26,750 nt of DNA from a virus (taxonomy: Duplodnaviria > Caudoviricetes): positions 1 through 26,750 of IMG/VR virus record IMGVR_UViG_3300020188_000043. One strand, 5' to 3'. Position 1 is the first letter of the stretch, and every line of letters begins with the position of its first letter. A program made the translations under genes and the position numbers. Below the pieces are notes generated by a model that made no database searches, was not told the DNA's origin, and saw nothing but the letters and a program-made list of their open reading frames with translations. This document shows, in pieces, positions 1 to 14,692 of the stretch.

Positions 1-693
1 AACTTGTTAGGTATTGATTTAAACACAACAGTAGCATCAGGTGTTGGTATTGATTTAACTTACTACATTACAGGTTCAAACTCTGTAGCAAGTATTGATG
101 TTAATGGTGACGGACTAGGAGTTGCAGCCAATAACACTGCTGACATACAAATGACTGGTGATAACAACGATCTAGTGTTTGATCTACTAGGTACTGGCAA
201 CAGTCTAATTGCAACAGCAACAGGTGGTAGTTACAATGACTTTAACTTTACCATCAACGCTGACACAACCACAGTAGGTGTAGCTATAAGTGGCGGTGGT
301 GCTAACCTTGCAACACTTAACTTGTCTAGCGACAATGCTATCCTTGATATTGATGTAATTGGTTCAGCTAATAATGTTGGTGTTACACAAAGTGGTATAG
401 GTGGTGTAGGTGGTATGTTCTTCGATCTAGATATAAATGGATCAAGCAACGTTGTAACAACATCACAAACTGATGTTGGTGATCACATTATGAATATTGG
501 TATTATTGGTTCGAGTAACCTGGTTACAGCCACACAAAATGGTAGTACTGGTACAGCTGGACACAACATTGAGTTAGATATTACAGGCGGAAGTAACACT
601 GTATCTTCATCTCAAACAGGTGCTCAAGATAATGATGCTAATATTAATATAACAGGCTCAAGTAATACTTGGAGTTTGATACAGTCAGACTAA
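1..693 (+). CDS. curlin-like (CsgA/CsgB-type) beta-solenoid repeat protein, 5'-truncated by window edge
   Basis: G/N/S/T/D-rich imperfect repeats such as LDINGSSNVVTTSQ, IGIIGSSNLVTATQ, LDITGGSNTVSSSQ, INITGSSNTWSLIQ resemble the curlin G-x2-N-x5-Q pattern; frame is open from base 1. Confidence 0.7.
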   Translation, partial: NLLGIDLNTTVASGVGIDLTYYITGSNSVASIDVNGDGLGVAANNTADIQMTGDNNDLVFDLLGTGNSLIATATGGSYNDFNFTINADTTTVGVAISGGGANLATLNLSSDNAILDIDVIGSANNVGVTQSGIGGVGGMFFDLDINGSSNVVTTSQTDVGDHIMNIGIIGSSNLVTATQNGSTGTAGHNIELDITGGSNTVSSSQTGAQDNDANINITGSSNTWSLIQSD

Positions 694-842
694 TGGAAAC
701 TATCTTGAAAAAAAATGAACTATGGAATAAATATGTTAATGCATTCAATGCTCAAACACTTTATGAAATAGAGTTACATAGGAAAGAATATGAAAAAGTT
801 ACTAATAGCACTACTGACAATTGTACCAATAATATCTCATAG
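693..842 (+). CDS. small hypothetical protein (49 aa), not in ORF track
   Basis: ATG overlaps the upstream stop (TAATG at 691-695); METILKKNELWNKYVNAF...NNIS*; fills the gap but overlaps the next gene by 53 nt. Confidence 0.4.
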   Translation: METILKKNELWNKYVNAFNAQTLYEIELHRKEYEKVTNSTTDNCTNNIS

Positions 843-1893
843 TGCTATAGGAACTATTAGTGATCAAAAACATGATCCTGCAAGTATTAAAAGAAAAAAT
901 TTAACATTAGAAGGTATTATGGGTACCAATGTAGAGATGTTAGATACTCTACGTACTGGTCAAGGTACTTTAGAAATTACATTTGAAGATTTTACTCAGG
1001 TTCAAATGACAGAATCAGCAAAGTTAATCATTGATGACTTTGTTTACGATCCAAAAAATGCAGATGCAAGTAAACTATCAATCAAAATAGCATCTGGTAC
1101 AGCTCGTTACGCATCAGGTCAAATCGCAAAAAACAATCCACAATCAGTTAAAATTAGAACACCAAGTGCCACAGTATCCGTTCGTGGTACTGATTTTACC
1201 GCCACAGTAGATGAGATAGGTAGTACCACAGTTATTCTATTGCCAAGTTGTCCTCCTGGTTGGTTAGACATTGAACGTGATTGCGTTACAGGTTCTATTG
1301 AAGTTGCTAGTCTAGGCGGTAGTGTCTTAATGAATAAACCATTTGAAGCTACTCGCGTACCTAACCTAGAAGCAAAGCCTACTTCACCAGTCATTGTTGA
1401 TCTAACAGAAGAAATGATTAGACAAATCATTATCGTAGGACCGCCAAAAGAATTTAAAGATGAAGAAATGGATAATACTACAATTAGTCTATTAGATGAC
1501 AATGCCTTAGATCAAAACCTATTAGAAAATGAATTAGACAAAGACCTATCTGAGATATATACAGATAGACTTAGTGAAAACTTGTTAGATAGAGACTTCT
1601 TAAAGAATGTATTAGACATACTAGATCTACAACTAGCTATGTCACAATCAAGAACACTATCCACTTCAGATAAGAATGAATTGCTTCCAGATTTTATTCC
1701 TGACCAAGGTGTAACATATACTACTGATAGCATATCTATTGAACTGTGTATGAATACAACAGGTAGTGATATATCTTGTGTTAACGTACCTACAACGCAA
1801 GAAACAACTATACGTCAAATACAAGGTGCGGTTGATATAACTAACAGAGTTAATAGTGAAGGTACTACCAATATCACTACGAGACAGAACTAA
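790..1893 (+). CDS. secreted FecR-domain protein
   Basis: Signal peptide MKKLLIALLTIVPIISHSA; FecR-family motifs DTLRTG..LEITFED..Q, GTARYASG, VKIRTPSATVSVRGTDF. Confidence 0.8.
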   Translation: MKKLLIALLTIVPIISHSAIGTISDQKHDPASIKRKNLTLEGIMGTNVEMLDTLRTGQGTLEITFEDFTQVQMTESAKLIIDDFVYDPKNADASKLSIKIASGTARYASGQIAKNNPQSVKIRTPSATVSVRGTDFTATVDEIGSTTVILLPSCPPGWLDIERDCVTGSIEVASLGGSVLMNKPFEATRVPNLEAKPTSPVIVDLTEEMIRQIIIVGPPKEFKDEEMDNTTISLLDDNALDQNLLENELDKDLSEIYTDRLSENLLDRDFLKNVLDILDLQLAMSQSRTLSTSDKNELLPDFIPDQGVTYTTDSISIELCMNTTGSDISCVNVPTTQETTIRQIQGAVDITNRVNSEGTTNITTRQN

Positions 1894-3245
1894 TGTATAA
1901 ATCAATATTCATAGCATTCTTAGTGTTAATCGTGTCGCATTTTTTCGCAACAAAAGCCGAAGCTGATTTATACTACGATACCTATCAGGGCACAGGCGCC
2001 TATCCCACATTTCCAGGCAATGGTGGAAGTTTAACTTATCCCACTGCGTTAAGTTCAGGTACTGTCACAGGCATAGATTTCAATTGGAGCAGTGGTGCTG
2101 TGTTAGATTCCGGTCAGACTGATCGAGTTATCGTACACTTCTATGGTTACATTACTATACCAGATACAGGCAGTCAGGACATACAATTCTATCTCTATGC
2201 TGATGATGGCGTTTACATGAAATTGGACAGCACAGTTGTAATTAATGATTGGCAAGAACAAGGCGCTGGAACTTGGAATTACGTTTCAACAGATCAAACA
2301 TTAACAGGTGGGTCTACATATTACCTAGATATGTGGATGTATGAAAACGGTGGAGGTGCCGCAGTTAAGTTATATTGGGACCAAACAGGTTCAGTTGCTA
2401 TTGTTCCAACTTCAGTTTATGCTACAACATACACACCGCCCTCAACATCAACTGTAACTGGATCCAGTCCAGGTATTAGTGGTAGTCAATCAACAGAAAT
2501 TACTTCAGCAAGAACACGAGCCAGCACATACAATTCAAATAGTGACAACTCAGTTTATATAGATCAAGCAGGTGATAATAATACTGTTACTATAACACAA
2601 CAAGGCACAGCAGGCAATCATATAAGAGGTATTGACGGAGCCAGTGCTGGTGTTATCACAGGCGATTCAAATACCATTGAGATTATGCAAGGGTCTCCAA
2701 ATACCACTGATCCCAATTTAATAGAACTATCAGTTGTTGGTAGTACAAATGATATATTATTATATCAGGATAGAGTTAATGGTACAGGTGCAATAGATAC
2801 TGTCGCTACGGGAGGACATACCATAAGTTTAGATTTGTTTGGTGACTTAAATGACATTGATGTTGTACAAAGTAATAATACCGTCAATCAGGGACATTAT
2901 GTAGGCATTGACCTAATAGGTGATAGTAATGTTATAGATGTATTCCAGGCAAACGACTATAGCAAAAAACTATTCTCAACAGTAACAGGTAATTCAAATT
3001 TAATTAATGTAATACAAAAAGGTGATAGCAGTAAGTATGCTGAGATTGAATTAATAGGTAACGGACATTTAGTTGACTTAACACAACAAGGTTTAGGAAA
3101 TCATGATGCTTCAATCTCGTTAACATACGGATCAGCATCCAGTTCAGTAACACTAGATCAAAACAGTTCACTAGACCAATCATACAGTCTGGAACAAACT
3201 TGCTATACTATTGGTGGTTGCTCAGCCACGGTTACTCAGAACTAA
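1893..3245 (+). CDS. secreted PA14-domain plus curlin-like repeat protein
   Basis: Signal peptide ending AEA; PA14 signature (IDFNW, FYGYITIP, FYLYADDGVYM, WMYENGGGA.VKLYW); S/T/P linker; C-terminal repeats such as IDQAGDNNTVTITQ, VTGNSNLINVIQKG. Confidence 0.8.
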   Translation: MYKSIFIAFLVLIVSHFFATKAEADLYYDTYQGTGAYPTFPGNGGSLTYPTALSSGTVTGIDFNWSSGAVLDSGQTDRVIVHFYGYITIPDTGSQDIQFYLYADDGVYMKLDSTVVINDWQEQGAGTWNYVSTDQTLTGGSTYYLDMWMYENGGGAAVKLYWDQTGSVAIVPTSVYATTYTPPSTSTVTGSSPGISGSQSTEITSARTRASTYNSNSDNSVYIDQAGDNNTVTITQQGTAGNHIRGIDGASAGVITGDSNTIEIMQGSPNTTDPNLIELSVVGSTNDILLYQDRVNGTGAIDTVATGGHTISLDLFGDLNDIDVVQSNNTVNQGHYVGIDLIGDSNVIDVFQANDYSKKLFSTVTGNSNLINVIQKGDSSKYAEIELIGNGHLVDLTQQGLGNHDASISLTYGSASSSVTLDQNSSLDQSYSLEQTCYTIGGCSATVTQN

Positions 3246-3255
3246 TAAATAATAA

Positions 3256-5265
3256 ATGAAAAAAATAAATCTATTTACTCCATGGTCAGCACTTATTACT
3301 TTATGTATATTAGTGTTCATTAAAATACAATCTCCAATGTTTGTTGAAAGTATGCAATTGCGGTACTTTGATACACTCATTACATCTGCACCTGAACAAC
3401 AAACCACTATCGCTACTGTTAATATAGACGAAGCTTCGTTAGAAAAATATGGTCAATGGCCATTTAGTCGAGATATCTATGCTGATATCATTAAAGAGTT
3501 ATATGCAAAAGGTGCTGGATTAGTTGTATTCAATGTGCTTATGCCTGAAGCAGATAGATTAGGAAAAGATTCTATACTAGCTAAAACTATGGAAGAATAT
3601 CCAGTGGTACTTCCAAACTTTGGTAGTGATAAAACAAAAAACCATCCACGTAATCCAGGTGCTGTAATGATTGGTGATCCTACTGGTAAGGTCGTAGAAT
3701 ACCCAGGTATCGTTGCATCAATTGAAGCATTAGAAAGTCGTGCATATGGTACAGGTATTGCTACAACATTCCCTGAAGTAGATGGTGTTACTCGAAGAAT
3801 GCCAATGGTTATACGAAGTGGTGATACATTATATCCTAGTATGGGATTAGAAGTGCTAAGAATATTAGCAGGTGATCCTAGTTTTCAAATAAAGTTTAGT
3901 GATATAGGTATTGATAAACTCAGAGTGCCTCAGTTTGGAATACTATCTACTGATCCTATTGGTAGAGTGTGGATTGATTACCAACAAAGACCAGTATCTT
4001 ATAGTTTAACTGAATTACCCGAAACATTTAATAGTAGTATAGTTATTGTAGGAACCACAGCTGCAGGTATTGCCAATCCTATAGCAACTAGTAGAGGTGA
4101 AACTTGGCCACACGAAGTACAAGCATCTGTTATAGCTACATTATCAAGTGGTATCAATATACAACGACCAGATTGGGCTGCTGGAGCCGAACTAATAACA
4201 TTGATACTATTGACTGTTATCTTATTAGTCTTATCTCGATGGGTATATGTAGGATTAGGTACTGGTATATTATTATTAGCTTCAGTGGTACCTATTACAA
4301 GTTATGTATATAGTCAACACTTATTCTTATTTGATGCAACATTGATATTAGGCGGTGGTATACTTATTATGCTTCATGCATATGGAGTTAAGTTCATATC
4401 AGAATTTAAACAGAAACAACAGATTAAAAAACAATTTGGTACCTATCTATCTCCAGCTTTAGTTGAAAAACTACAAAAGAATCCTGAATTATTACGATTG
4501 GGTGGCGAAACAAGAGAACTATCTATTATGTTTACTGATGTTCGTGGCTTTACTACAATATCAGAACATTATGGTGAAGATGTACAAGGTTTAACTAAGA
4601 TCATGAATAGATATATGACAGCCATGACTAAAAAGATACTAGAGAATAATGGTACTATAGATAAATATATCGGTGATGCTCAGATGGCTTTTTGGAATGC
4701 ACCCATTGATGATACTGAACATGCAATAAATGCAGTAAAAACTGGTTTAGAAATGCTTAAGGATTTAGATAAATTTAATGCTGAAATTACTCAAGAAGGT
4801 ATTCCTGCATTTGGAATGGGATTGGGAATCAATACAGGAAATGTTGTGGTAGGCAATATGGGTTCTGATCAGCGGTTTGATTATACATGCCTTGGTGATC
4901 ACGTTAATCTCGCTGCTAGACTTGAAGGCCAATCTAAAAACTATGGTGTTCGAATCATTATAGGTGAGAATACTGCAAATCTAGTAAAATATAAATATAA
5001 TGTAGTTGAGTTAGATACCATTGCAGTAAAAGGTAAATCGATTGGTGTTAAAATATTTACCATTGCAGATATAGATGATCTTGCTTCTCATAAAAAGTTT
5101 CTTCGTGCTTACTATGCAGGAGAATGGAGAGCAGCTTCTTTATTAACAACTAAACTAAAAGAATCTAATCCATTTCTTATTACATACTATGAGAATATGG
5201 CAGAGAGAATGTATTCTGTACCACCTATTAATTGGGATGGTGTTTATAAAGCAACTAGTAAGTAA
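3256..5265 (+). CDS. CHASE2-domain membrane class III adenylate cyclase
   Basis: N-terminal TM; CHASE2 motifs (VNIDEASL..YGQWPFSR, DGVTRRMP); three TMs; cyclase motifs FTDVRGFT, DKYIGDA, GINTG..VVGNMGS, YTCLGDHVNLAARLE. Confidence 0.93.
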   Translation: MKKINLFTPWSALITLCILVFIKIQSPMFVESMQLRYFDTLITSAPEQQTTIATVNIDEASLEKYGQWPFSRDIYADIIKELYAKGAGLVVFNVLMPEADRLGKDSILAKTMEEYPVVLPNFGSDKTKNHPRNPGAVMIGDPTGKVVEYPGIVASIEALESRAYGTGIATTFPEVDGVTRRMPMVIRSGDTLYPSMGLEVLRILAGDPSFQIKFSDIGIDKLRVPQFGILSTDPIGRVWIDYQQRPVSYSLTELPETFNSSIVIVGTTAAGIANPIATSRGETWPHEVQASVIATLSSGINIQRPDWAAGAELITLILLTVILLVLSRWVYVGLGTGILLLASVVPITSYVYSQHLFLFDATLILGGGILIMLHAYGVKFISEFKQKQQIKKQFGTYLSPALVEKLQKNPELLRLGGETRELSIMFTDVRGFTTISEHYGEDVQGLTKIMNRYMTAMTKKILENNGTIDKYIGDAQMAFWNAPIDDTEHAINAVKTGLEMLKDLDKFNAEITQEGIPAFGMGLGINTGNVVVGNMGSDQRFDYTCLGDHVNLAARLEGQSKNYGVRIIIGENTANLVKYKYNVVELDTIAVKGKSIGVKIFTIADIDDLASHKKFLRAYYAGEWRAASLLTTKLKESNPFLITYYENMAERMYSVPPINWDGVYKATSK

Positions 5266-5333
5266 ACCCAATACAGTTATATTATAATAAGTTGGAATTA
5301 AAGTAAAATTATTTTTTATTGGAGAGAGTAAAA

Positions 5334-5663
5334 ATGTCAGAAGAGAAAGAATTTCACCCAGCAGATACCAACGGGGATGGTAAAGTTTCAACTGAAGAGC
5401 ATAAAATGTATATGGAATTTAAGCGTAAAAAGCTTGAAGACGAAGATGCAATGAGAGATGCTCAAAGACAAATGACATGGTTCGCATTATTTGGCATGTT
5501 ATTATACCCAGTTGCTGTTATACTAGCAATATTATCTGGATTAGATTCTGCAAGTAAAATATTAGGAGATATGGCAGCAACATATTTTGTTTCTGTAGCT
5601 GCAATTGTTATGGCATTCTTTGGTAAGACTGCATACGAAAGCAAAAATACCCCTAATAAATAA
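5334..5663 (+). CDS. small membrane protein with N-terminal EF-hand loop and two TM helices
   Basis: Canonical 12-residue loop DTNGDGKVSTEE; two hydrophobic segments; ATG 5334 follows GGAGAG and is preferred over TTG 5319. Confidence 0.7.
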   Translation: MSEEKEFHPADTNGDGKVSTEEHKMYMEFKRKKLEDEDAMRDAQRQMTWFALFGMLLYPVAVILAILSGLDSASKILGDMAATYFVSVAAIVMAFFGKTAYESKNTPNK

Positions 5664-5696
5664 TAAACGATAAACTGATTTGAAAAGGAAAACATT

Positions 5697-5840
5697 ATGG
5701 CTAAATCAAAATCACTAGAAAAAACGGCACACTTTACTACTCATAAGAGAACATCACAAGGTGGCAAAAAACCTAAGATGCAAACAATGAATAAGAGTAA
5801 GAAAGCCTCTTACAAAAAATATAGAGGACAAGGTCGCTAA
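5697..5840 (+). CDS. small very basic protein (47 aa) ending KKYRGQGR, not in ORF track
   Basis: AAGGA upstream of ATG 5697; MAKSKSLEKTAHFTTHKRTSQGGKKPKMQTMNKSKKASYKKYRGQGR*. Confidence 0.75.
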   Translation: MAKSKSLEKTAHFTTHKRTSQGGKKPKMQTMNKSKKASYKKYRGQGR

Positions 5841-5880
5841 GAAACCTTGTCGTAATAGATCTAATATCCGAATATAAACT

Positions 5881-5911
5881 GCCTCTGAGAGCTTCCCAGA
5901 GGTGTGTTTTT
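5881..5911 (+). terminator. probable intrinsic terminator
   Basis: GCCTCTG...CAGAGGT stem followed by GTGTTTTT, just before the next promoter. Confidence 0.55.
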
Positions 5912-5944
5912 ACATAAAAAACATCAAAAAATAGCATAAAAGAG

Positions 5945-5973
5945 TGTACTTTAATTCATATTTAGTGTATAAT
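5945..5973 (+). promoter_or_regulatory. early-type sigma70-like phage promoter
   Basis: TGTACT-N17-TATAAT; one of 8 similar copies. Confidence 0.8.
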
Positions 5974-6003
5974 TAATTATAGATTGATTAAATGGAGAGA
6001 GAA

Positions 6004-6282
6004 ATGACACAATTTATAAAACAAAATTTTGATTATAGTGACGGTTGGTTAACATATAGAACCGACATTAAAACCCGTCCTGAATTTGTTGCTAGATTTA
6101 AATACAACAAATCAGACAAACCTAGCTTCCTTAAATTTCTAATTAAAAACTTCACAGTTGAAGAATATAGAGATTTTACAAACAAACTTAATTTGGCACC
6201 ATTACAAGCCTTGGCTACAAAAGGCTATGTGCCACCAAGCATTAAAAACTTTGATGTTAAATTATTTTTAAGGAGAGCATAA
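6004..6282 (+). CDS. hypothetical phage early protein
   Basis: ORF directly after promoter; ATG 6004 follows GGAGAG (alternative ATG 5992). Confidence 0.7.
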   Translation: MTQFIKQNFDYSDGWLTYRTDIKTRPEFVARFKYNKSDKPSFLKFLIKNFTVEEYRDFTNKLNLAPLQALATKGYVPPSIKNFDVKLFLRRA

Positions 6283-6521
6283 TAGATATTTCAAAATTAA
6301 AACAAGTAGTAATAAGTGGTCCAGAAGATGGTGAAACTATTGCTATGATAGTAGATAACACAGCATACTTAATTCAAACTCACGGTATGAGTGAAGCAAT
6401 ATTTAGAATGAAACGTGAGCATGGTATTCAAACACATGAATGGATGTTGTCATGTGACAAGGCTGTTTTAATTCCAGGCATTTGGGAATATCAAATGGCA
6501 GTTTATAATGGTTTACTTTAA
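6279..6521 (+). CDS. hypothetical protein (about 80 aa), possible ATA start
   Basis: Open frame (I)IDISKLKQVVISGPEDGE...IPGIWEYQMAVYNGLL* behind AAGGAG; fills the gap between the previous stop and the next promoter. Confidence 0.55.
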   Translation: MIDISKLKQVVISGPEDGETIAMIVDNTAYLIQTHGMSEAIFRMKREHGIQTHEWMLSCDKAVLIPGIWEYQMAVYNGLL

Positions 6522-6540
6522 ATATTAATTGTGATATAAT
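6512..6540 (+). promoter_or_regulatory. early-type promoter
   Basis: (G)TTTACT-N17-TATAAT, matching the T4 early -35 GTTTAC. Confidence 0.8.
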
Positions 6541-6546
6541 ACTATT

Positions 6547-6731
6547 ATAGTACAGCTAATTATAGGTAGCTTAAGTCCTATAACCAGAGAGGTCTGGAAC
6601 CGATTCAAGCGGAACGTAACGAGCCTTATACGAACTGGCGGTTTAGGTAGGTAACCTCAAAACGAGCTCAGGAGGAATAGCTAATCTTTCCGACCTGTAG
6701 CAATTACAGGAATACGATTAGCACTTTTTTT
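6547..6731 (+). ncRNA. candidate structured non-coding RNA of unknown family
   Basis: No ORF in the track, GC-richer than flanks, starts right after a promoter, several stems (6560-66/6577-83, 6584-88/6593-97, 6621-24/6666-69, 6680-86/6716-22, 6694-99/6705-10), ends in a T run. Confidence 0.6.
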
Positions 6732-6750
6732 ATTAACTGAAGGATATATT

Positions 6751-7038
6751 ATGGAGATCTATGAAAAAATTGACTTTACCGATAGCGATTTTAAAACCTT
6801 ACTTAGGGAAAAATTACACGAAAATGAAGTCAGCGTTACTTTCACCAAAAGGGATGGTTCTGAGCGAGCAATGCAATGCACGTTATCAGCTGCCAGAATT
6901 CCCGGAGAACAGTTACCTAAAGAATCAGGTACCGGCACTGTTAAAACCTTTTCCGAAGAAGCCATCAGAGTCTTCGACACCGAAAAATCCGAGTGGAGAT
7001 CTTTCAGATACGACTCAATCAACGTAGTTAAATTTTAA
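6751..7038 (+). CDS. WYL_2/DUF2693-like Sm-like SH3-fold protein
   Basis: V.FTKRDGSER.M.CTL and VFD.EK.EWRSFR.D motifs; AAGGA RBS. Confidence 0.75.
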   Translation: MEIYEKIDFTDSDFKTLLREKLHENEVSVTFTKRDGSERAMQCTLSAARIPGEQLPKESGTGTVKTFSEEAIRVFDTEKSEWRSFRYDSINVVKF

Positions 7039-7047
7039 GGATATATT

Positions 7048-7293
7048 ATGCAATTAATTGATCAAGACAAAAAGAAAATCAGAGACGCAATGCAAGAAGC
7101 TTCTAATTCATTAATTAGAATGGAAGCTGAAAGAGACTTAATAAAAACTATTGTTGAGGACTTATTCGAACAATTTAAAATTCCTAAAAAGACTTTGAAT
7201 AGAATGATCAAGGTCTATCACAAACAAAACTTCAATGAAGAGATAGCGAATAATGATGAATTCCAAACTCTTTACGAATCTGTTACAAAATAA
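7048..7293 (+). CDS. dsbA: T4 DsbA-like double-stranded DNA-binding protein
   Basis: EAS.S..R.EAERD.IK, K.LNRM.KVYHKQNF.EE, F..LYE; size and position near rnh. Confidence 0.8.
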   Translation: MQLIDQDKKKIRDAMQEASNSLIRMEAERDLIKTIVEDLFEQFKIPKKTLNRMIKVYHKQNFNEEIANNDEFQTLYESVTK

Positions 7294-7296
7294 TAT

Positions 7297-7325
7297 TGTA
7301 CTTTAATTCATATTCAATGTATAAT
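7297..7325 (+). promoter_or_regulatory. early-type promoter
   Basis: TGTACT-N17-TATAAT, nearly identical to the copy at 5945. Confidence 0.8.
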
Positions 7326-7355
7326 GGTATTAATAATTAAATTAAAAGGTTACCA

Positions 7356-8471
7356 ATGGCAAAATCATCAGCAAAACACTTAGCTTTTGTAGAAAAAGTT
7401 AATGCAAGATATAAAGGAGGTTCTGCTCCTTTAGTAACTGAAGAAAATTATCGGTTAGAGTTTCCAAGAGCCTTGGCATATCATGCATTAAATAAAGAAA
7501 AGAAACAACTTGCTAAAGCTGTTTATGCATATCTCAAAAAGAATAATACCGAATATGTTTCTGTTATTAAGAAAGTTCCTGATTGGGAACTATTAACTAT
7601 AGGTAAAGTTATATGTGTGATTAATGACGGAAGTTGGATCCAACAAAAAGATTATGTATATTTAGAGACTAAGTTAAATGAACTTTATATCAAATATAAA
7701 AATATCCAGTCAATGAAAGTAGAAGATGAAAATACTGAGCAAAAGCCTAAGGCTCCCGCTGTATCAATCGAACAAAGAATTATCGATTCGGCTAGAGCTC
7801 AGAGTGAAGAAATTGATTATGCGATCGATGAGTATATTAATGAAAAGTCTTCTACTTTCTCCACTAAAGCAATGCTGCTGAAAAATAGTATATCAGGAGC
7901 TGTTGCAAAACGTATAGGTGAATATTATCAAAATCCACTTAACGAAATTAATGAAGCAATTGCAGGTACATGTGATCAGTTATCAGAAGGTTATTCATTC
8001 TTTACTAAAGCAGAATTAAAAAAATTCAGAGACTTCTTACAAAGTATTGTTAATGATTGTAAACAACATGCAGTGATAGTTAAGAAACCTAGAATAGTTA
8101 AACCTAAACCCGCAGGTGTGCTTGTTAAAAAAATGAAGTATATGATAGAGTTTAAAGAATTAAATATGAGATCAATCAATCCTGCTGAGATTGTTAATGC
8201 GGATGTTGCTTATATATATAATACTAAGACAAGAAAGTTATCTCGGTATGAAGCTGATGATCGTGAAACCTTATCAGTAAAAGGTACCACTATCATTAAT
8301 TACTCAGTTAGTAATTCAGACTCTAAAACGATACGTAAACCAGAAGACTTCTTTAAGAAACTTGATTTAGGTAAACGGGCTATGAATAAACTCTTTACTG
8401 ATTTAAAAACTAAACCATCTGAACCAAGTGGTAGAGTAAATACTGATTGTATTATTATAGGAGCATTTTAA
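7356..8471 (+). CDS. conserved hypothetical protein of T4-like phages
   Basis: Long ORF; C-terminal YNTKTRKL..Y, VKGTTI, KTIRKP, GRVN motifs familiar from aquatic T4-like phages. Confidence 0.7.
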   Translation: MAKSSAKHLAFVEKVNARYKGGSAPLVTEENYRLEFPRALAYHALNKEKKQLAKAVYAYLKKNNTEYVSVIKKVPDWELLTIGKVICVINDGSWIQQKDYVYLETKLNELYIKYKNIQSMKVEDENTEQKPKAPAVSIEQRIIDSARAQSEEIDYAIDEYINEKSSTFSTKAMLLKNSISGAVAKRIGEYYQNPLNEINEAIAGTCDQLSEGYSFFTKAELKKFRDFLQSIVNDCKQHAVIVKKPRIVKPKPAGVLVKKMKYMIEFKELNMRSINPAEIVNADVAYIYNTKTRKLSRYEADDRETLSVKGTTIINYSVSNSDSKTIRKPEDFFKKLDLGKRAMNKLFTDLKTKPSEPSGRVNTDCIIIGAF

Positions 8472-8472
8472 A

Positions 8473-9369
8473 ATTATTATTCTAGATTACAGTCAGATTG
8501 CACTAAGTAATATATTACCATTTCAATCTGATCTTAAACGCAATACAGAAGAGCAAACGGTAGACTTAATACGACATGCTACACTTGCTTGTATTAAATC
8601 ATACAAGAAAAAGTATGGTAAAGAGTATGGCGATATAGTTATTGCGTGTGATGGTAAATCTTATTGGCGTAAAGAAGCTTTCCCACATTATAAAGCTTCT
8701 CGTAAAGCTAATAGAGAAAAATCTGATTTAGATTGGAATTTAATATTTACTACTCTAGGTAATTTAAGAGAAGATTTAAAATCGTATTTTCCGTATAAGG
8801 TTATACATGTAGATAGAGCTGAAGCAGATGATGTTATTGCAGCACTAGCTAAGTGGAGTCAAGAGAATGAATTAATACAAGAAGGATTATTTAGTGAACC
8901 TCAAAAAGTATTGATTGTATCTTCTGATAAAGACTTTATACAACTACAAAAATATAAGAATGTTAGACAGTGGAGTCCTATGCAAAAGAAATATGTAGAG
9001 GGTTCACAAAAAGATATTCATGAATATACTATTACCCATACGGTAAAAGGTGATACTGGAGACGGTATACCTAACATATTAAGTAAAGACGATGTGTTTG
9101 TTAGTGGTGATAGACAGAAACCATTCTCAAGTAAACGTCTAACTGAATTTTATGAACACGGAATATTAGCATGTAAAACTGAAGAAGAAAAACGTAATTA
9201 TCAACGCAATCTTATGTTAGTTAATTTTGATTTTATTCCAAAAGATGTTCGATCAGAAATACTTACATCGTTTGAAGAGAATAAACCTAAAGGCGATAAG
9301 ATGATGATCATGAACTATTTAATTAAAAACAAATGTCGATTATTACTCGATGATTTAGAGGAATTTTAA
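8473..9369 (+). CDS. rnh: T4-type RNase H / 5'-3' flap exonuclease; apparent ATT start
   Basis: Frame extends 146 codons upstream of the tracked ORF: (I)IILDYSQI, IACDGKSYWRK..FPHYKASRK, AEADDVIA, SSDKDFIQL, KGDTGDGIPNI. Confidence 0.9.
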   Translation: MIILDYSQIALSNILPFQSDLKRNTEEQTVDLIRHATLACIKSYKKKYGKEYGDIVIACDGKSYWRKEAFPHYKASRKANREKSDLDWNLIFTTLGNLREDLKSYFPYKVIHVDRAEADDVIAALAKWSQENELIQEGLFSEPQKVLIVSSDKDFIQLQKYKNVRQWSPMQKKYVEGSQKDIHEYTITHTVKGDTGDGIPNILSKDDVFVSGDRQKPFSSKRLTEFYEHGILACKTEEEKRNYQRNLMLVNFDFIPKDVRSEILTSFEENKPKGDKMMIMNYLIKNKCRLLLDDLEEF

Positions 9370-9777
9370 ATGCAAACATATTTACCAGAACTATTAGAAG
9401 AAATTAATAGTGATCCTAAACTGATTGAAAAATATAAAGGCGATTCAGCTTTAACTATATTATTTAAACATGCGTTTATACCAGAGCAAAAATTTTTATT
9501 ACCGGAAGGCGAACCTCCATATAATAAAGATGCTGCTCCAATTGGTATGTCACCTGCCATTCTTAGACAAGAGTTAAGAAGGTTTTATGTTTTTACTCGA
9601 ACAGATTTACAACCATTAAAGCGTGAACAATTGTTTATTAGTTTATTAGAAAGCTTGCATCCATCTGAGGCATCTCTTATGCTTGCAGTTAAAGAACAAT
9701 CTATCCCTAAACTATATAAAAAGATCACTCGTAAATTAGTGGAAGGTGCAGGGTTTATTCCACCATTAGAAAAATAA
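9370..9777 (+). CDS. conserved hypothetical T4-like protein (DUF6433-like)
   Basis: FLLPEGEPPY and KREQLFISLLESLHPSEA motifs; follows rnh. Confidence 0.7.
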   Translation: MQTYLPELLEEINSDPKLIEKYKGDSALTILFKHAFIPEQKFLLPEGEPPYNKDAAPIGMSPAILRQELRRFYVFTRTDLQPLKREQLFISLLESLHPSEASLMLAVKEQSIPKLYKKITRKLVEGAGFIPPLEK

Positions 9778-9778
9778 A

Positions 9779-9807
9779 GGTACCTTAATTATGAAATATT
9801 GTATAAT
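9779..9807 (+). promoter_or_regulatory. early-type promoter (variant)
   Basis: GGTACC-N17-TATAAT with TTAA after the -35 as in other copies. Confidence 0.6.
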
Positions 9808-9864
9808 GATAGTAATACTAGCAATATCACTGCTATATATCCATTCATACGGACTACTTATTTA

Positions 9865-10437
9865 ATGAATATATTTTACTTACATGAAAACCCAAAACTA
9901 TGTGCTGAATATCACGTAGATAAACATTGTGTTAAAATGATAGTTGAATCATGCCAATTATTATCAACTGCTCATCGTCTATTAGATGGTGAAGAATATG
10001 AAGGTCGTAGTAAAACTGGCCGTAAAGCACGTCGGTGGAAACTATCAGATGAAAGAGAAACCTTATTATATAGTGCTACTCATATTAATCATCCTTCTGC
10101 TGTATGGTGTAGAGCGTCTAAATCTAATTATATATGGTTACACAATCTTCTTATTGAATTATTAGCAGAATACACATATCGGTATGAAAAAACTCATAAG
10201 TGTACAGAATTAGCTAACGCTTTACGAGCAGTTCCAACCAATATATTAGATACAGTATTTACTGCACCAACTCCTGCCATGCCAGATGAGTATAAAGTAC
10301 CAGGCAACGTATTACAATCTTATCATAATTATTACAATGGAGAAAAACAAAGAATGTTTGCTTGGAAGAAAAGACAGGCTCCTTCCTTTATAAATAACTA
10401 TATGAAAACGACTGAGGTGCATTATGCCGCTGTATGA
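9865..10437 (+). CDS. denV: pyrimidine-dimer DNA glycosylase / endonuclease V family
   Basis: MNIFYL..P..CA.YH.DKH.VKM..E..QLLS and THINHPSAVW motifs; start moved to ATG 9865. Confidence 0.8.
   Translation: MNIFYLHENPKLCAEYHVDKHCVKMIVESCQLLSTAHRLLDGEEYEGRSKTGRKARRWKLSDERETLLYSATHINHPSAVWCRASKSNYIWLHNLLIELLAEYTYRYEKTHKCTELANALRAVPTNILDTVFTAPTPAMPDEYKVPGNVLQSYHNYYNGEKQRMFAWKKRQAPSFINNYMKTTEVHYAAV
10389..10396 (+). promoter_or_regulatory. T4-type late promoter
   Basis: TATAAATA about 28 nt upstream of ATG 10424. Confidence 0.6.
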
Positions 10438-10669
10438 TTTTAAAGATACAAATACTGGAGATGTATTTGAGAAAATGATGTCTATCTCCTCCAAAGAACA
10501 ATATCTAAAAGAAAACCCACACATACAGTCTCATATTAGTGGCATGCCGCCATTAATAGATCCCGTAGCACTTGGTATTCGTAAACCTGATAATGGATTC
10601 AAAGAAGTATTACAAAAAATACATTCCAGAGCTCCTGGCTCTGAGCTCGATAAAACTTCTAATATTTAA
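10424..10669 (+). CDS. FmdB-like small protein (zinc-ribbon-like, cysteines absent)
   Basis: MPLYDF....G..FE and GFKEVLQKI motifs; GAGG RBS; precedes phoH. Confidence 0.65.
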   Translation: MPLYDFKDTNTGDVFEKMMSISSKEQYLKENPHIQSHISGMPPLIDPVALGIRKPDNGFKEVLQKIHSRAPGSELDKTSNI

Positions 10670-10677
10670 AGGCACCT

Positions 10678-11430
10678 ATGGCCAGAAAATCAACTTATGC
10701 TACTGAACCGCCAGTAGCAGCTAAACCAAAAAAAAATAATTCATTAATAATCAAGGCTGATATGCTTAAAGAATTTGAACCACTAACTGATAATCAAAAG
10801 AAGTTTTTTGATGCATATAAAGTTGGTAGTTATTTTATAGCTTTACATGGTGTTGCAGGAACAGGTAAAACATTCTGTGCATTGTACAAAGCAATCGAAG
10901 AAGTATTAAGTAAAGAAAACTTCTTTAAAAAAATCATTGTTGTGAGATCAGCAGTACAATCTCGTGACATGGGACATCTTCCTGGTGATGTAGCAGAAAA
11001 GATGGAAATTTATGAACAACCTTACCGACAAATCTGTGAGACGCTCTTTGGTAGAAGGGATGCTTGGTCAAGGCTTGAGGAACAAGGTTACATCAGTTTT
11101 ATCTCTACTAGTTTTATACGAGGTATGTCATTTGACGATGCAATTATTATTGTAGATGAAATGCAAAATATGAATTATGAAGAAATAGATACAGTAATGA
11201 CTCGCGTTGGATACCGCTCTAAAATTATTTGGTGTGGAGACTATAGACAAACTGATTTAAGAAAGTCGAATGATAAAACAGGGATTCTAAAGTTTTTTGA
11301 TATAGCTCAACATATGAAATCTTTTGAAAAAATTGAATTTACCGCTGATGATATTGTCAGATCTAGTTTGGTGAAAGATTATATTATGGCTAAAATTCGT
11401 TTTGAAGATCTAGTAGAACCAAATTTATAA
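10678..11430 (+). CDS. phoH: PhoH-family ATPase
   Basis: GVAGTGKT Walker A, GHLPGD..EK, FIRGMSFD, IIVDEMQN, GDYRQTDL, DIVRS. Confidence 0.95.
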   Translation: MARKSTYATEPPVAAKPKKNNSLIIKADMLKEFEPLTDNQKKFFDAYKVGSYFIALHGVAGTGKTFCALYKAIEEVLSKENFFKKIIVVRSAVQSRDMGHLPGDVAEKMEIYEQPYRQICETLFGRRDAWSRLEEQGYISFISTSFIRGMSFDDAIIIVDEMQNMNYEEIDTVMTRVGYRSKIIWCGDYRQTDLRKSNDKTGILKFFDIAQHMKSFEKIEFTADDIVRSSLVKDYIMAKIRFEDLVEPNL

Positions 11431-11445
11431 ACAAGGAGAAATACT

Positions 11446-11631
11446 ATGTTAGATATGTTAAATATGGCAGTAGATTGGGTTAAAGCTCAATGGGCTCAAA
11501 GAACATCTTGGGACGGTACTGTATTAATCGTAGTAGGTCTAATGGGTCTTTTGGCACACCCATTAATGCATATGGCATCATGGGCAGCAGTTGCTTGGGG
11601 TGCTTGGACATTATGGAAACAAGAAAAATAA
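11446..11631 (+). CDS. small Trp-rich membrane protein, possible holin
   Basis: Two hydrophobic segments; AAGGAG RBS; directly upstream of endolysin. Confidence 0.6.
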   Translation: MLDMLNMAVDWVKAQWAQRTSWDGTVLIVVGLMGLLAHPLMHMASWAAVAWGAWTLWKQEK

Positions 11632-11642
11632 TTGACCTGATT

Positions 11643-11668
11643 GGGGAGACAAACTCCCCTTTCTTTTT
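11643..11668 (+). terminator. intrinsic terminator
   Basis: GGGGAG-ACAAA-CTCCCC then TTTCTTTTT. Confidence 0.75.
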
Positions 11669-11680
11669 AAGGAAAATCTA

Positions 11681-12145
11681 ATGAATTTATCTAAAAACTT
11701 TACACTAGCCGAATATACTAAGAGTCAAACAGCACTTAGACTAGATATAGACAATACTCCAAATGATACTCATTTAGAAGCATGTACAGCTTTATTTGAG
11801 AATGTAGTACAACCTATTAGAGATCGATTTGGTCCAACAGTCATTAACTCAGGATACAGAGGACCAGCACTAAATGAAGCAGTTGGTGGTTCAAGTAATA
11901 GTCAACATTGTAGAGGTGAAGCAGTAGACATTGAAGTACCAGGTGTTCCTAATGCTGAAGTAGCACAATGGATTGTAGACCATACAGAATTTGATCAAGT
12001 GATATTAGAATTTTATACTCCAGGTATTCCTGATTCTGGTTGGGTGCATGTATCATACAAAGCAAATGGTGATAACCGTAAACAAGTATTAACGGCAATG
12101 AAAGAAAATGGTAGAACTGTGTATAAAACTGGATTGATTGCGTAA
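11681..12145 (+). CDS. peptidase M15A-family endolysin
   Basis: LSKNFTL.E, INSGYR, SQHCRGEAVD (S.H..G.A.D), WVHVS. Confidence 0.88.
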   Translation: MNLSKNFTLAEYTKSQTALRLDIDNTPNDTHLEACTALFENVVQPIRDRFGPTVINSGYRGPALNEAVGGSSNSQHCRGEAVDIEVPGVPNAEVAQWIVDHTEFDQVILEFYTPGIPDSGWVHVSYKANGDNRKQVLTAMKENGRTVYKTGLIA

Positions 12146-12150
12146 TTAAG

Positions 12151-12179
12151 TGTACTTTAATATCATATTATGGTATAAT
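12151..12179 (+). promoter_or_regulatory. early-type promoter, probably leaderless transcript
   Basis: TGTACT-N17-TATAAT; ATG begins 7 nt after the -10. Confidence 0.8.
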
Positions 12180-12185
12180 TAAATT

Positions 12186-12686
12186 ATGAAGGCAGCAGTA
12201 TTAGGTAATGGACCGTCTAGAGTATCATATACAAATCCATGGCAATATGATTATGTCCTTGGTTGTAATATTCCATGGACTAAAGTTGACGCTACTATTG
12301 TTGTAGATATCGAAGTTATCATGCATTTAAGTAAACATCCAGAAAAGATTACTAAAATGTATGCTTCAGCAAATGCATGGAGATATACTGATGAAATTAA
12401 TAAACGCCATTTATTTGATGGGTGTTTACTCAAGATTATTGAAAAAAATCATCTTGGTGAATCAAGTGCACATATAGCAGCAAAAGTATTAATTGGATTA
12501 GGATATACTGAAATTGATATATATGGTTGTGATACTAAATTTGGTACATCAACTACTGAAAGTTATACCCATCAGTATGTTAATACATCTAATGATGATC
12601 AAGAAACTGCTGCGGCAAAATGGAGAAAGCGATGGGTTGTTATGCAAGGAGCCCATCCTGAAGTAAAATTTAAATTTATTAAGTGA
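12186..12686 (+). CDS. GT29/MptE(DUF115)-like putative transferase
   Basis: AAVLGNGPS, GCN, SS..IA...LIGLG..EI.IYG.D motifs. Confidence 0.6.
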   Translation: MKAAVLGNGPSRVSYTNPWQYDYVLGCNIPWTKVDATIVVDIEVIMHLSKHPEKITKMYASANAWRYTDEINKRHLFDGCLLKIIEKNHLGESSAHIAAKVLIGLGYTEIDIYGCDTKFGTSTTESYTHQYVNTSNDDQETAAAKWRKRWVVMQGAHPEVKFKFIK

Positions 12687-12692
12687 TAATAT

Positions 12693-13256
12693 ATGAAAAA
12701 AATAATAGCAATTGCAATACTAACACTTTCAACATCCGTATCAGCTGAGAAACAAGGTTACTTTTACGGTATACGTTTTGAAAGCCAAGATGCTAAAGGC
12801 GGAACTGATGCTATGACATATGGCATGAAGTTTGGTAAAAATGTATATGATTGGTTAGATGTATCAGTATCAACTCGGCTAAAAGATCAGAATGAAAAAA
12901 GTAATAACAATGATACACGTCTAGAAGCTGGAATCAAATTAAAGCACAAACTCAACTCAGATTGGTCAACCAGTCTTTATCTAGGTTCAGGTGAGAAATA
13001 CGTTAATAATAATAACTTCGGCTATTGGGTTACAACTCCAGGTATTAAATACAAAATTAATTCGGATTGGTCAATCGGGACTAGCGTACGTTTTCGTGAC
13101 AGCTATAATACTAGCTATCAACAGAATGATACTACATATGCAGTTAAACTAGGATATAAAATTGCAGATGATATTACACTAGATACTCGATACCGAATAA
13201 AGCGAGGTGATGGACCATATGATGCAGTAGGAATGGGGTTAACATTTAACTTTTAG
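12693..13256 (+). CDS. outer-membrane beta-barrel (porin-like) protein
   Basis: Signal peptide ending VSA; alternating amphipathic strands with aromatic residues; C-terminal GMGLTFNF resembling a BAM beta-signal. Confidence 0.8.
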   Translation: MKKIIAIAILTLSTSVSAEKQGYFYGIRFESQDAKGGTDAMTYGMKFGKNVYDWLDVSVSTRLKDQNEKSNNNDTRLEAGIKLKHKLNSDWSTSLYLGSGEKYVNNNNFGYWVTTPGIKYKINSDWSIGTSVRFRDSYNTSYQQNDTTYAVKLGYKIADDITLDTRYRIKRGDGPYDAVGMGLTFNF

Positions 13257-13266
13257 GAGATATACT

Positions 13267-13437
13267 ATGTCAAAAGAAAAATGGCAAGATTTAGAAATAC
13301 TTAAAATGAAACACATAGAACTAGATCATAAAATTAAAGCAGGACACAGCAACTTTATAGATGATGTTGAATTATCTAAAATGAAAAAACAAAAATTAAT
13401 TATTAAAGAAATGATTGAAAAATTACAAGGAAAATAA
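13267..13437 (+). CDS. YdcH/DUF465-like small coiled-coil protein (56 aa), not in ORF track
   Basis: AGGAG RBS; MSKEKWQDLEILKMKHIELDHKIK...LSKMKKQKLIIKEMI fits the H..LD..I / LKK.KL..KD.I pattern. Confidence 0.7.
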   Translation: MSKEKWQDLEILKMKHIELDHKIKAGHSNFIDDVELSKMKKQKLIIKEMIEKLQGK

Positions 13438-13438
13438 T

Positions 13439-13702
13439 ATGGAAGTAATACCAATGAAAGATAAGTTATTAGTAGCAGAAAATGAAAGAAAGAAAGAAAC
13501 TGCTAGTGGTATTATTATTGAAACAACAACTACACTACTAGATACTTCATCTGGTACAATACTTGCTGTAGGGCCTGATGTTAAAAATGTAGCGGTTGGT
13601 GACAATGTATTTTTAAACTGGTCTAAAACTGCATTAGTAAAAATTGATGGTGCACAACGTGTTCTTGTTTCTGAAGAAGATATTTTAGCTATTATCAAAT
13701 AA
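13439..13702 (+). CDS. groES: co-chaperonin GroES
   Basis: PMKDKLLV, ETASGIII mobile loop, GTILAVGP, V.VGD.V, EEDILAI; AAGGA RBS before ATG 13439. Confidence 0.9.
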   Translation: MEVIPMKDKLLVAENERKKETASGIIIETTTTLLDTSSGTILAVGPDVKNVAVGDNVFLNWSKTALVKIDGAQRVLVSEEDILAIIK

Positions 13703-13703
13703 T

Positions 13704-13946
13704 ATGAGAAAGCACTATTATAAATTTAAAACTGCAAAAAATTATGATATGTATAAGTGTGTCGTGATATTTATTATAGGGCTTATAGTATTGTTTACAG
13801 TAACATCATGTGAAGACAAAGAACCAATGATTCAAAAGGGGTTGGAGGCTATGATAGAACCAACTCCTTCATATGATTATGAACTACCTGTTATTATTGT
13901 TACACCTGATGATAATTTTGTATCGACAATAGAAGCAATTAATTAA
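13704..13946 (+). CDS. hypothetical membrane protein or lipoprotein
   Basis: Hydrophobic stretch ending VTSC (lipobox-like); start uncertain. Confidence 0.5.
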   Translation: MRKHYYKFKTAKNYDMYKCVVIFIIGLIVLFTVTSCEDKEPMIQKGLEAMIEPTPSYDYELPVIIVTPDDNFVSTIEAIN

Positions 13947-13954
13947 CATAACAG

Positions 13955-13983
13955 TGTACTTTAAACAGTAATCAGTGTATAAT
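13955..13983 (+). promoter_or_regulatory. early-type promoter, probably leaderless transcript
   Basis: TGTACT-N17-TATAAT; ATG begins 7 nt after the -10. Confidence 0.8.
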
Positions 13984-13989
13984 AATATT

Positions 13990-14619
13990 ATGAAAACATT
14001 TATAGATCATGAATTCCCATCATTAACCCGTATTGATTCTGATTCAGGTAGATTATATGAAACACCTAATGGAGATAGATATCCATCAGTGACTTCTATT
14101 ACCGGTAAGATGAGTCAAAAATCTATCGAAGCTTGGAAGAAACGTGTAGGTGAAGCAGAAGCAAATAGAGTATCTTCTAGAGCTTCTCAACGTGGAACTC
14201 AAATCCATAGTTATTGTGAATCATTTTTACTTAATGAAGATTATCATATTGACATATTTGATTTAGAGATGTGGAACAGTATGCGGCCTTTTGTTGATAA
14301 GATTGATAACATACATGCACTTGAAAAGATGATGTATTCAGATAAGCTTAAATTGGCTGGTACAGTAGACTGTATTGGTGAATATGAAGGTGAATTATCT
14401 GTCATTGACTTTAAAACATCTGCAAGATTGAAAGATGAAAATAAGATTGAAAACTATTTTATTCAGGCTACAGCATATTCAATTATGTTTGAAGAATTGT
14501 TTAATATTAAAATACCTAATATAGTTATATTAATTGGTGTAGATAGTGAACAGCCACAAATCTTTAAAAGAAAACGTAAAGACTTTATAGAAAAGTTAGT
14601 TAAGTTGCGTTTTGACTAA
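13990..14619 (+). CDS. PD-(D/E)XK exonuclease
   Basis: R.Y.TP.G..YPSVT, RGT.IH, AGTVDC, VIDFKTS, YFIQATAY. Confidence 0.85.
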   Translation: MKTFIDHEFPSLTRIDSDSGRLYETPNGDRYPSVTSITGKMSQKSIEAWKKRVGEAEANRVSSRASQRGTQIHSYCESFLLNEDYHIDIFDLEMWNSMRPFVDKIDNIHALEKMMYSDKLKLAGTVDCIGEYEGELSVIDFKTSARLKDENKIENYFIQATAYSIMFEELFNIKIPNIVILIGVDSEQPQIFKRKRKDFIEKLVKLRFD

Positions 14620-14627
14620 AATACATG

Positions 14628-14656
14628 TGTACTTTAAAAGAGTATTAGTATATAAT
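14628..14656 (+). promoter_or_regulatory. early-type promoter
   Basis: TGTACT-N17-TATAAT. Confidence 0.8.
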
Positions 14657-14692
14657 AGTAGTATAAACAAGTAATCAAAGGAGTACCAACGA

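Follow-up and report, generated by a model that had tools for sequence, protein, structure and literature searches.

A four-gene block in a T4-like phage is the 3' half of the viral curli module, a possible late-infection trans-envelope sensor

The window analysed here comprises 26,750 nucleotides (nt) of a tailed-phage record (IMGVR_UViG_3300020188_000043, positions 1 to 26,750). It begins with four plus-strand open reading frames (ORFs), the first of which (1-693) is open at its 5' end. They encode a curlin-like protein (curlin 1), a FecR-domain protein, a second curlin with a PA14 head (curlin 2) and a CHASE2 adenylate cyclase. This block is the 3' half of the published viral type VIII secretion system (T8SS; curli) module, and it represents one more copy of this known module, intact and well conserved. 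As the main function of the module, we tentatively propose a late-infection trans-envelope sensor that would convert an event at the host surface to cyclic AMP (cAMP); the probability of this reading is put at about 0.45.

Identity and conservation of the viral curli module

The module was described for pelagiphage podoviruses and myoviruses as csgF, csgG, a curlin gene, a FecR gene, a second curlin gene, an adenylate cyclase gene and one or two genes labelled 'HK', and it was found at all 65 ocean stations studied (Wittmers 2022, PMC9599517). In the window, Pfam detected FecR in the fecR product (residues 52-148, E 1.7e-10), PA14 (residues 55-163, E 1.7e-9) and Curlin_rpt (28.7 bits, cut-off 20.7) in curlin 2, and CHASE2 (residues 19-323, E 1.6e-37) and Guanylate_cyc (residues 420-595, E 1.3e-20) in the cyclase. 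The domains named in the original prediction, which had been made from the letters of the window, were recovered with the exception of curlin 1: its part in the window had no Pfam match at E<=0.1, and the full protein remained below the cut-off (Curlin_rpt, 19.7 bits). The tight packing predicted for the four co-oriented genes was seen in the TAATG overlap of fecR and curlin 2 (1891-1895) and in the 10-nt gap preceding the cyclase, and not between curlin 1 and fecR, which are 96 nt apart.

Four viral contigs encode a FecR protein identical to that of the window and match the window at 99.9%. Going upstream from curlin 1, these near-identical contigs carry csgG, csgF, a small membrane gene (TM2), a nuclease gene and a further small membrane gene (TM1); contig L084, in which position 8580 corresponds to window base 1, was used for these upstream genes (Table 1). 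csgG and csgF, which had been expected upstream, lie directly 5' of curlin 1, and the complete order of the viral T8SS module (csgF, csgG and curlin, then fecR, followed by second curlin and cyclase) was found. Neither CsgE nor CsgD was detected among the operon ORFs in a Pfam scan.

The GenBank records of the cultured phages HTVC008M and Melnitz have equal gene order. That of Melnitz annotates two curlin genes and confirmed the presence of csgG/csgF-like genes in this phage, which the original prediction had mentioned. The identity to the proteins of the cultured phages was 38-39% for the cyclase, 43-48% for the FecR protein and 45-47% for CsgG. The small ORFs before csgF, TM1 and TM2, are homologous to ORFs of HTVC008M and Melnitz and were equated with the 'HK' genes by position. 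It had also been claimed that no phage system of this kind had been characterised. Both the cluster and hypotheses on its role, namely superinfection defence, aggregation and cofactor import, with the cAMP idea included, were published in 2022 (PMC9599517); the claim stands insofar as the published accounts, in their accessible parts, contain no functional test.

Conservation of the gene linkage was determined in two partly overlapping sets of loci from related phages. The cyclase-anchored set comprised 76 other viral loci, with four copies of the window virus left out, and the TM1-anchored set comprised 79 loci, 31 of them with full 9-kb flanks. As predicted, the linkage was conserved: 38 of the 40 cyclase-anchored loci with at least 9 kb upstream contained csgF, csgG, curlin and fecR, and TM1 and TM2 were both present wherever enough DNA was available on both sides (31/31). 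Five records lacked fecR inside the flank; it is located farther off in four of them, and the remaining record is just a short fragment. In the TM1-anchored loci with full flanks, TM2 was found in 31/31, the cyclase in 30/31, and fecR, csgG and curlin in 28/31 each. The TM1/TM2 pair stays together even in loci with the block inverted or split. The linkage of csgF, csgG, curlin, fecR and cyclase is far above chance. The FecR protein and the cyclase form the core of the module and the second curlin is optional, being present in 32 of the 54 loci in which fecR and cyclase are complete. The module is common: estimates put the number of stored viral stretches with a cyclase-pattern match at about 780 and of those with a TM1-pattern match at about 2,300. 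In six loci (L060, L063, L078, L079, L155 and L160), csgF and csgG are split by an insertion of about 2 kb, which in L078 contains a 681-codon ORF with a signal-peptide-like start and without a Pfam match.

A host-derived assembly chimera at 1-5.3 kb was ruled out, because three other viral contigs run unbroken from base 1 with 99.9% identity (window 1-11298, 1-12019 and 1-15262) and contigs of the sequencing runs X12, X13 and X14 reach from curlin 2 across the cyclase as far as 5639 or 5994, bridging the cyclase and the downstream genes. The equal block in HTVC008M and Melnitz likewise speaks against host DNA misassembled onto the phage. The slightly higher G+C content of the block (34-39%, compared with 26-35% downstream) would fit such an event, which is next to impossible.

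Both repeat proteins resemble curlins. The family profile of curlin 1 (51 sequences) had two PDB matches at E<=1, Pontibacter CsgA (8C50, E 1.8e-18) and E. coli CsgA (8ENQ, E 7.7e-6), and it is on this profile that the predicted curlin identity of curlin 1 rests. For curlin 2, a model with a mean predicted local distance difference test (pLDDT) score of 76 was obtained. The best match of its solenoid among 48,161 chains was again CsgA 8C50 (Z 18.8, root-mean-square deviation (rmsd) 8.8, 201 aligned residues, 26% identity), followed by other beta-helices with Z<=17. The original call of the repeats as curlins, and not as other fibres, is supported in that profile and curlin 2 model both best matched CsgA. 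Virion fibres in place of host-envelope proteins would be compatible with a late promoter motif that the module has in common with structural genes, and tailspike beta-helices were among the lower-ranking fold matches (Z about 11). This reading is highly improbable in view of the CsgA matches by sequence and structure, the N-terminal hydrophobic segments, the lipobox in 81 of 98 CsgG proteins and the equal operon in a bacterial chromosomal context described below.

The head of curlin 2 matched PA14 lectins in its model (e.g., 6X95, Z 15.2). Among 30 homologues of curlin 2, the stalk was conserved and the head could not be aligned. A contig of run X14 (4,806 nt), which matches the window at 1164-1961 and 2475-5994, carries 489 other bases in place of 1962-2474 with the frame kept. 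This replacement indicates that in a near-identical strain, represented by this one contig, the head has been exchanged between signal peptide and stalk. PA14 domains bind sugars in a Ca-dependent manner via adjacent Asp-Asp residues. A-D-D-G is present in the window, x-D-D-G occurred in 18 of 50 curlin 2 proteins, and the head may bind sugars.

The module as a possible trans-envelope sensor

The FecR protein has a single hydrophobic segment by hydropathy (residues 5-23), is predicted to carry a signal peptide, and its beta domain starts right after this segment. In the predicted model (mean pLDDT 77), the beta domain matched that of PupR (6OVM) with Z 15.1 and an rmsd of 2.5 over 135 aligned residues; by sequence, the FecR profile found no solved relative. 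The linker is acidic (20 D/E vs. 7 K/R) and was modelled with low confidence. VRGTxF was present in 100/100 distinct FecR homologues. E. coli FecR cleaves itself at Gly181-Thr182, and the freed C-terminal fragment carries the signal, as described in PMC12036975. By analogy, self-cleavage of the phage protein is predicted at Gly133-Thr134, the putative equivalent site. The C-terminal domain had no usable Atlas match. A C-terminal hydrophobic-x-hydrophobic-x-Gln strand, a pattern chosen after the sequences had been seen, occurred in 100/100 FecR, 46/50 curlin 2, 57/105 curlin 1 and 30/722 other ORF products. The N-terminal half resembled the 'cell surface anchoring domain' 5IX9, which we take to be an adhesin retention module, at a level below the bar (Foldseek E 0.14, TM 0.70 (target), Z 5.9), and this match serves as a lead only.

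With regard to membership in the anti-sigma factors, the periplasmic FecR/CCSSD fold and the Gly-Thr site were found, and a cytoplasmic anti-sigma domain and membrane anchor were not. This bears on the suggestion that iron carriers or cofactors enter through the pore, with the FecR protein as an iron-responsive regulator. The FecR domain and fold fit this idea, which was raised in PMC9599517. Since the FecR protein, with its one N-terminal hydrophobic segment, lacks the anti-sigma part, the label 'iron regulator' is not supported. In addition, neither the operon genes nor the scanned recurring neighbours included a TonB-dependent receptor or an extracytoplasmic function (ECF) sigma factor, and iron import is considered quite improbable.

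Class III adenylate cyclases employ two metal-binding Asp residues, a Lys together with an Asp or Thr for the substrate, and an Asn and an Arg for the transition state. In the phage cyclase, D428, K470, D474, R555 and K592 were conserved in 68/68 aligned homologues, T544 in 65/68 and N551 in 66/68; looser motif counts in a larger set ranged from 94 to 106 of 111. The best PDB matches of the cyclase were bacterial adenylate cyclases, and the enzyme is predicted to be active and ATP-specific. A literature search, with most subscription journals outside it, yielded nothing relevant on cAMP in Pelagibacter among the papers listed. A metallophosphoesterase recurs beside the module in 20 loci (e.g., L036:9130-9873) and a GT4 glycosyltransferase in 10 loci (L041:7023-8012); together they are reminiscent of a lipid-remodelling pair. 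A role as cAMP phosphodiesterase is likewise conceivable, and in the bacterial locus L093 a metallophosphoesterase gene stands just before csgF.

The TM pair encodes two proteins, 89 and 92 amino acids (aa) long, each of which has a membrane segment and probably a coiled coil. TM1 and TM2 are paralogues (98.5% probability in a profile comparison); the 150 best TM2 relatives ranged from 62 to 209 aa. The label 'histidine kinase' was rejected for proteins of this size, and no kinase Pfam family was matched at E<=0.1 (50 and 49 members). N-H-D was present in 110/115 TM1 proteins, with D-N-D at that place in the TM2 consensus. With this His kept, a role as phospho-acceptor is conceivable. Two neighbours of the pair were noted: a membrane/coiled-coil protein of about 350 aa before TM1 (L084 4981-6063; near the module in 23 loci) and an ORF of about 67 aa without a Pfam match, which occurs near the module in 31 loci and between TM1 and TM2 in L166 (3435-3635).

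A T4 late-promoter motif, with the consensus taken as in the methods of PMC9004378, is located 6 nt before TM1 in L084. TATAAATA was found near the TM1 start in 13/49 cases compared with 24/829 other ORFs, and ATAAATA in 30/49 compared with 67/829; the phages are related, and these counts are not independent. In the TM1-anchored set, the late motif was near TM1 in 29/78.

A lysis device made of holin-like TM1/TM2, CsgG as outer-membrane pore and cAMP as timer is improbable, although several observations fit it. A PHROG labelled holin (phrog_4898) matched TM2 in 36/49 (best E 3.8e-5) and TM1 in 8/50 (best E 5.5e-5), these matches being weak and partial, and a feature score of 0.89 pointed to a YvrJ-like character; the literature found on YvrJ in phages had no apparent bearing on the module. 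The late motif is in keeping with lysis, TM1 was not found in two bacterial operon genomes (which are incomplete), and for Melnitz, a lysis-timing pore with a pinholin or secretin role was proposed (PMC9004378). However, the holin match of the TM2 query spans the first 20 residues alone, and Pfam YvrJ matches of TM1 and TM2 were sub-significant (4/50 and 1/49). Moreover, curlins and CsgF are intact in nearly all loci, whereas a bare pore needs neither. The pelagiphage Mosig, present in the searched collection, had no match to CsgG, the FecR protein or the cyclase, and it lyses its host without a detectable module.

Bacterial relatives of the module were found in two Caulobacteraceae metagenome-assembled genomes (MAGs; L093 and L094), where csgF-csgG-curlin-curlin-fecR-cyclase lie among chromosomal genes with 54-57% G+C. 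Their FecR homologue is full-length (39-40% identity), searches of both incomplete genomes did not find TM1, and 6-7 matches to cyclic nucleotide (cNMP)-binding proteins lie elsewhere in these genomes. Among the 301 and 401 genomes searched, a near full-length, high-scoring FecR match was seen in the centre genome only. The Caulobacteraceae copies may derive from phage. According to a published statement, FecR and cyclase are not inside bacterial curli operons; the Caulobacteraceae operon qualifies this statement, though such copies are rare. MAGs of various phyla yielded ten close FecR matches, which were not accepted as bacterial copies and were read as likely misbinned phage contigs; they have 32-41% G+C, most carry the TM pair and one lies beside a T4 clamp-loader gene. 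L087-L092 and L095-L097 are low-G+C module contigs that had been assigned to MAGs of unrelated phyla and are likely of phage origin.

The proposed relay has bacterial precedents. In Sinorhizobium meliloti, the outer-membrane component NsrA signals to the inner-membrane CHASE2 cyclases CyaK, CyaD1 and CyaD2 (described in PMC7529298 and PMC13001267), and in Campylobacterota, CHASE2 cyclases cluster with FecR-domain proteins (described in PMC9239204). A CHASE2 or cyclase match was located at most 1.5 kb from 8 of 27 distant FecR matches in Caulobacterales. In other Alphaproteobacteria, large proteins (870 to more than 4,000 residues) carry the FecR domain close to their N-terminus, and several of them have RTX repeats or are encoded beside type I secretion genes. 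In L240 (954-14729), a FecR-headed immunoglobulin (Ig)/cadherin adhesin of 2,119 aa is directly followed by a CHASE2 cyclase and an ATP-binding cassette (ABC) and HlyD exporter, with a cNMP-binding EAL protein as neighbour; this is a candidate surface-sensing circuit. No published description of a FecR-CHASE2-adhesin or retention-module link, or of an L240-type circuit, was found in a search that left most subscription journals outside.

The proposed sensor would operate in five steps. First, the unit would probably be transcribed late from the T4-type promoter ahead of TM1. Second, curlin 1 would leave through a CsgG/CsgF pore in the host outer membrane, as would curlin 2 in those phages that have it; the latter would present the swappable, probably sugar-binding head. 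Third, the FecR-fold protein would be exported to the periplasm, where it is likely cleaved by itself at the Gly-Thr site, with its C-terminal domain at the pore or fibre. Fourth, the CHASE2 cyclase would be switched by a FecR domain that is released or displaced when the fibre changes, for example on touching a nearby cell or particle. Fifth, and this step is the weakest, cAMP would act via a host reader or via the phage-specific TM1/TM2, most plausibly on the time or place of progeny release. The FecR domain would thus serve as a periplasmic relay attached to the structure that crosses the outer membrane, in this case the curli apparatus, with CHASE2 as its inner-membrane receptor. Late timing, the swappable head and the TM pair would be additions of the phage version. 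The FecR-to-CHASE2 relay itself is suggested by gene linkage and analogy.

In favour of the sensor are the FecR/cyclase core (38/40), the conserved cyclase residues and the PupR fold with VRGT in 100/100. The NsrA-CHASE2 system, the Campylobacterota clusters, 8/27 Caulobacterales sites, L240 and the Caulobacteraceae operon also speak for it, as do the late motif at TM1 and the head swap in a near-identical strain.

Several results weigh against it. A cNMP-binding gene was found in 0/5 large module-bearing phage records (three of them at least 90% complete) and was not found in the 33 scanned of 55 listed recurring neighbour families. The FecR C-terminus matched the curlin 1 profile weakly (probability 5.6%), and the short turns in its model do not suggest a curlin solenoid. 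The late motif was not enriched over the whole of L084 (4 found, 5.07 expected). A CHASE2 neighbour was present at just 2/11 alphaproteobacterial FecR sites among the proteins scanned, and the S. meliloti FecR-domain gene smc02177 near cyaD1 is dispensable for signal perception, as described in PMC5498481. Finally, the result for Mosig suggests that the module is dispensable for some relatives.

An adhesive curli fibre as the main product is a less likely contender. It could serve for 'sibling capture', as proposed by Zaragoza-Solas 2020 (PMC7029224), or as a shield against other phages, with the FecR protein and the cyclase as assembly feedback or independent input. The four components described as sufficient for curli (PMC7029224) are all present, the variability of the PA14-type head hints at selection on what it binds, and fibres of this kind were proposed in PMC9599517 as well. 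However, cytograms and transmission electron microscopy (TEM) of Melnitz infections, as presented in Buchholz 2022 (PMC9004378), were without cell clumping despite the two annotated curlin genes, and the headed curlin is missing from 22/54 loci that have kept the cyclase.

A further variant, contact-triggered lysis timing in large aquatic phages, would combine the curli stalk and exchangeable lectin head with a self-cleaving FecR tether at CsgG, the CHASE2 cyclase and a TM1/TM2 holin-like heterodimer as output. It is a long shot. If it were true, lytic phages in dilute water would time lysis by touching a new host cell, and to our knowledge this mechanism is unlike the lysis-inhibition and peptide-signalling systems.

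Features of the window and its surroundings

The coordinates of the module in the window and of the upstream genes in L084 are given in Table 1.

Table 1. Features of the module in the window and in the near-identical contig L084.
Feature	Coordinates	Strand	Description and basis
curlin 1, 3' part	1..693	+	putative core CsgA/B-like subunit; full gene about 303 aa; ORF and profile matches
49-codon ORF, possibly no gene	693..842	+	TAATG-coupled to curlin 1 stop; overlaps fecR start
fecR product, 367 aa	790..1893	+	N-terminal hydrophobic segment, FecR/PupR-type beta domain, linker, C-terminal beta domain
V-R-G133-T134 motif of FecR protein	1180..1191	+	putative equivalent of E. coli FecR Gly-Thr site
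C-terminal beta domain of FecR protein	1711..1890	+	strands in predicted model
curlin 2, 450 aa	1893..3245	+	predicted signal peptide, PA14 head, beta-solenoid stalk, conserved C-terminal Cys pair
exchangeable head of curlin 2, residues 24-194	1962..2474	+	PA14 fold; contig swap and fold match
curlin-type beta-solenoid of curlin 2, residues about 214-450	2532..3242	+	structure comparison
membrane adenylate cyclase, 669 aa	3256..5265	+	N-terminal transmembrane segment, CHASE2, more transmembrane segments, class III catalytic domain
TM1, small membrane gene	L084 6084-6362		near-identical contig
nuclease gene	L084 6366-6785		between TM1 and TM2; Pfam SNase
TM2, small membrane gene	L084 6871-7140		near-identical contig
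csgF	L084 7112-7564		Pfam CsgF
csgG	L084 7564-8349		Pfam CsgG

The T4-like character assigned to the genome by the original prediction was borne out by the families found (late coactivator, gp59, gp32, baseplate, tail tube, gp53 and gp5), with gp32 about 50% identical to that of HTVC008M, Melnitz, Mosig and cyanomyophages. The stretch occurs in sequencing runs labelled salt marsh and marine metagenome, 8 of which are marked as possible sources of the DNA. Scans for sigma-70 promoters and terminators yielded no more than expected by chance (30 found, 40.7 expected). Contigs from RNA libraries (4/4 runs) cover parts of the module; strand and level are not visible in them and DNA is possibly present, and they were not used as expression evidence.

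Directly 3' of the cyclase, the ORF 5334-5663 encodes an EF-hand-like N-terminus and two membrane segments; in 7 loci, a homologue is found at most 2 kb away from the module. The region 5995-6825 is variable, with raised summed contig depth, and run X14 omits 6112-6514 and 6583-6726. The ORF 12693-13256 (187 aa) had weak, sub-cut-off matches to outer-membrane beta-barrels and is another candidate for a host-envelope protein. Possible lysis enzymes are encoded at 11681-12145 (Peptidase M15) and 14693-15241 (cell-wall hydrolase), with phoH, groES and clpP-like genes nearby.

Comparison with known systems

A module that served contact sensing or adhesion would have consequences for host finding by lytic phages in dilute water and for the aggregation of infected cells. 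To the published module, the analysis adds a predicted cleavage site, the swappable head, probable late timing and a corrected reading of 'HK'; the words 'promoter', 'PA14', 'lectin' and 'signal peptide' do not occur in the main text of PMC9599517. Cultured phages with the module (HTVC008M, Melnitz) and one without a detectable module (Mosig) offer a natural comparison.

The closest system is the module of pelagiphages and methylophages (HTVC008M, Melnitz and HTVC023P-type podophages), with which the window phage has in common the order two small ORFs, csgF, csgG, curlin, fecR, curlin and cyclase. The window phage is only distantly related to HTVC008M and Melnitz by gp32, has another genomic neighbourhood, and differs by the nuclease gene between TM1 and TM2 and by the PA14 head on curlin 2. 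In the Caulobacteraceae operon, the order is as in the phage module, whereas the context is chromosomal and TM1 was not found. The curli of enterobacteria and Bacteroidota (8ENQ, 8C50) have a pore, CsgF and beta-solenoid subunits homologous to those of the phage module. The latter differs by longer and irregular repeats, a fused head domain and the co-encoded FecR protein and cyclase.

With the anti-sigma factors FecR, FoxR and PupR, the phage FecR protein shares the periplasmic fold and the Gly-Thr motif. In contrast to them, it has a predicted signal peptide in place of the anti-sigma domain and anchor, another C-terminal domain, and a cyclase as partner instead of a sigma factor. The NsrA/CyaK/CyaD1/CyaD2/Clr system of S. 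meliloti links an outer-membrane part to CHASE2 cyclases, with a FecR-domain gene near cyaD1, and is an analogy without membership. In place of its beta-barrel receptor, the phage module has CsgG/CsgF and curlins, and no Clr-like reader was found in the phage records searched.

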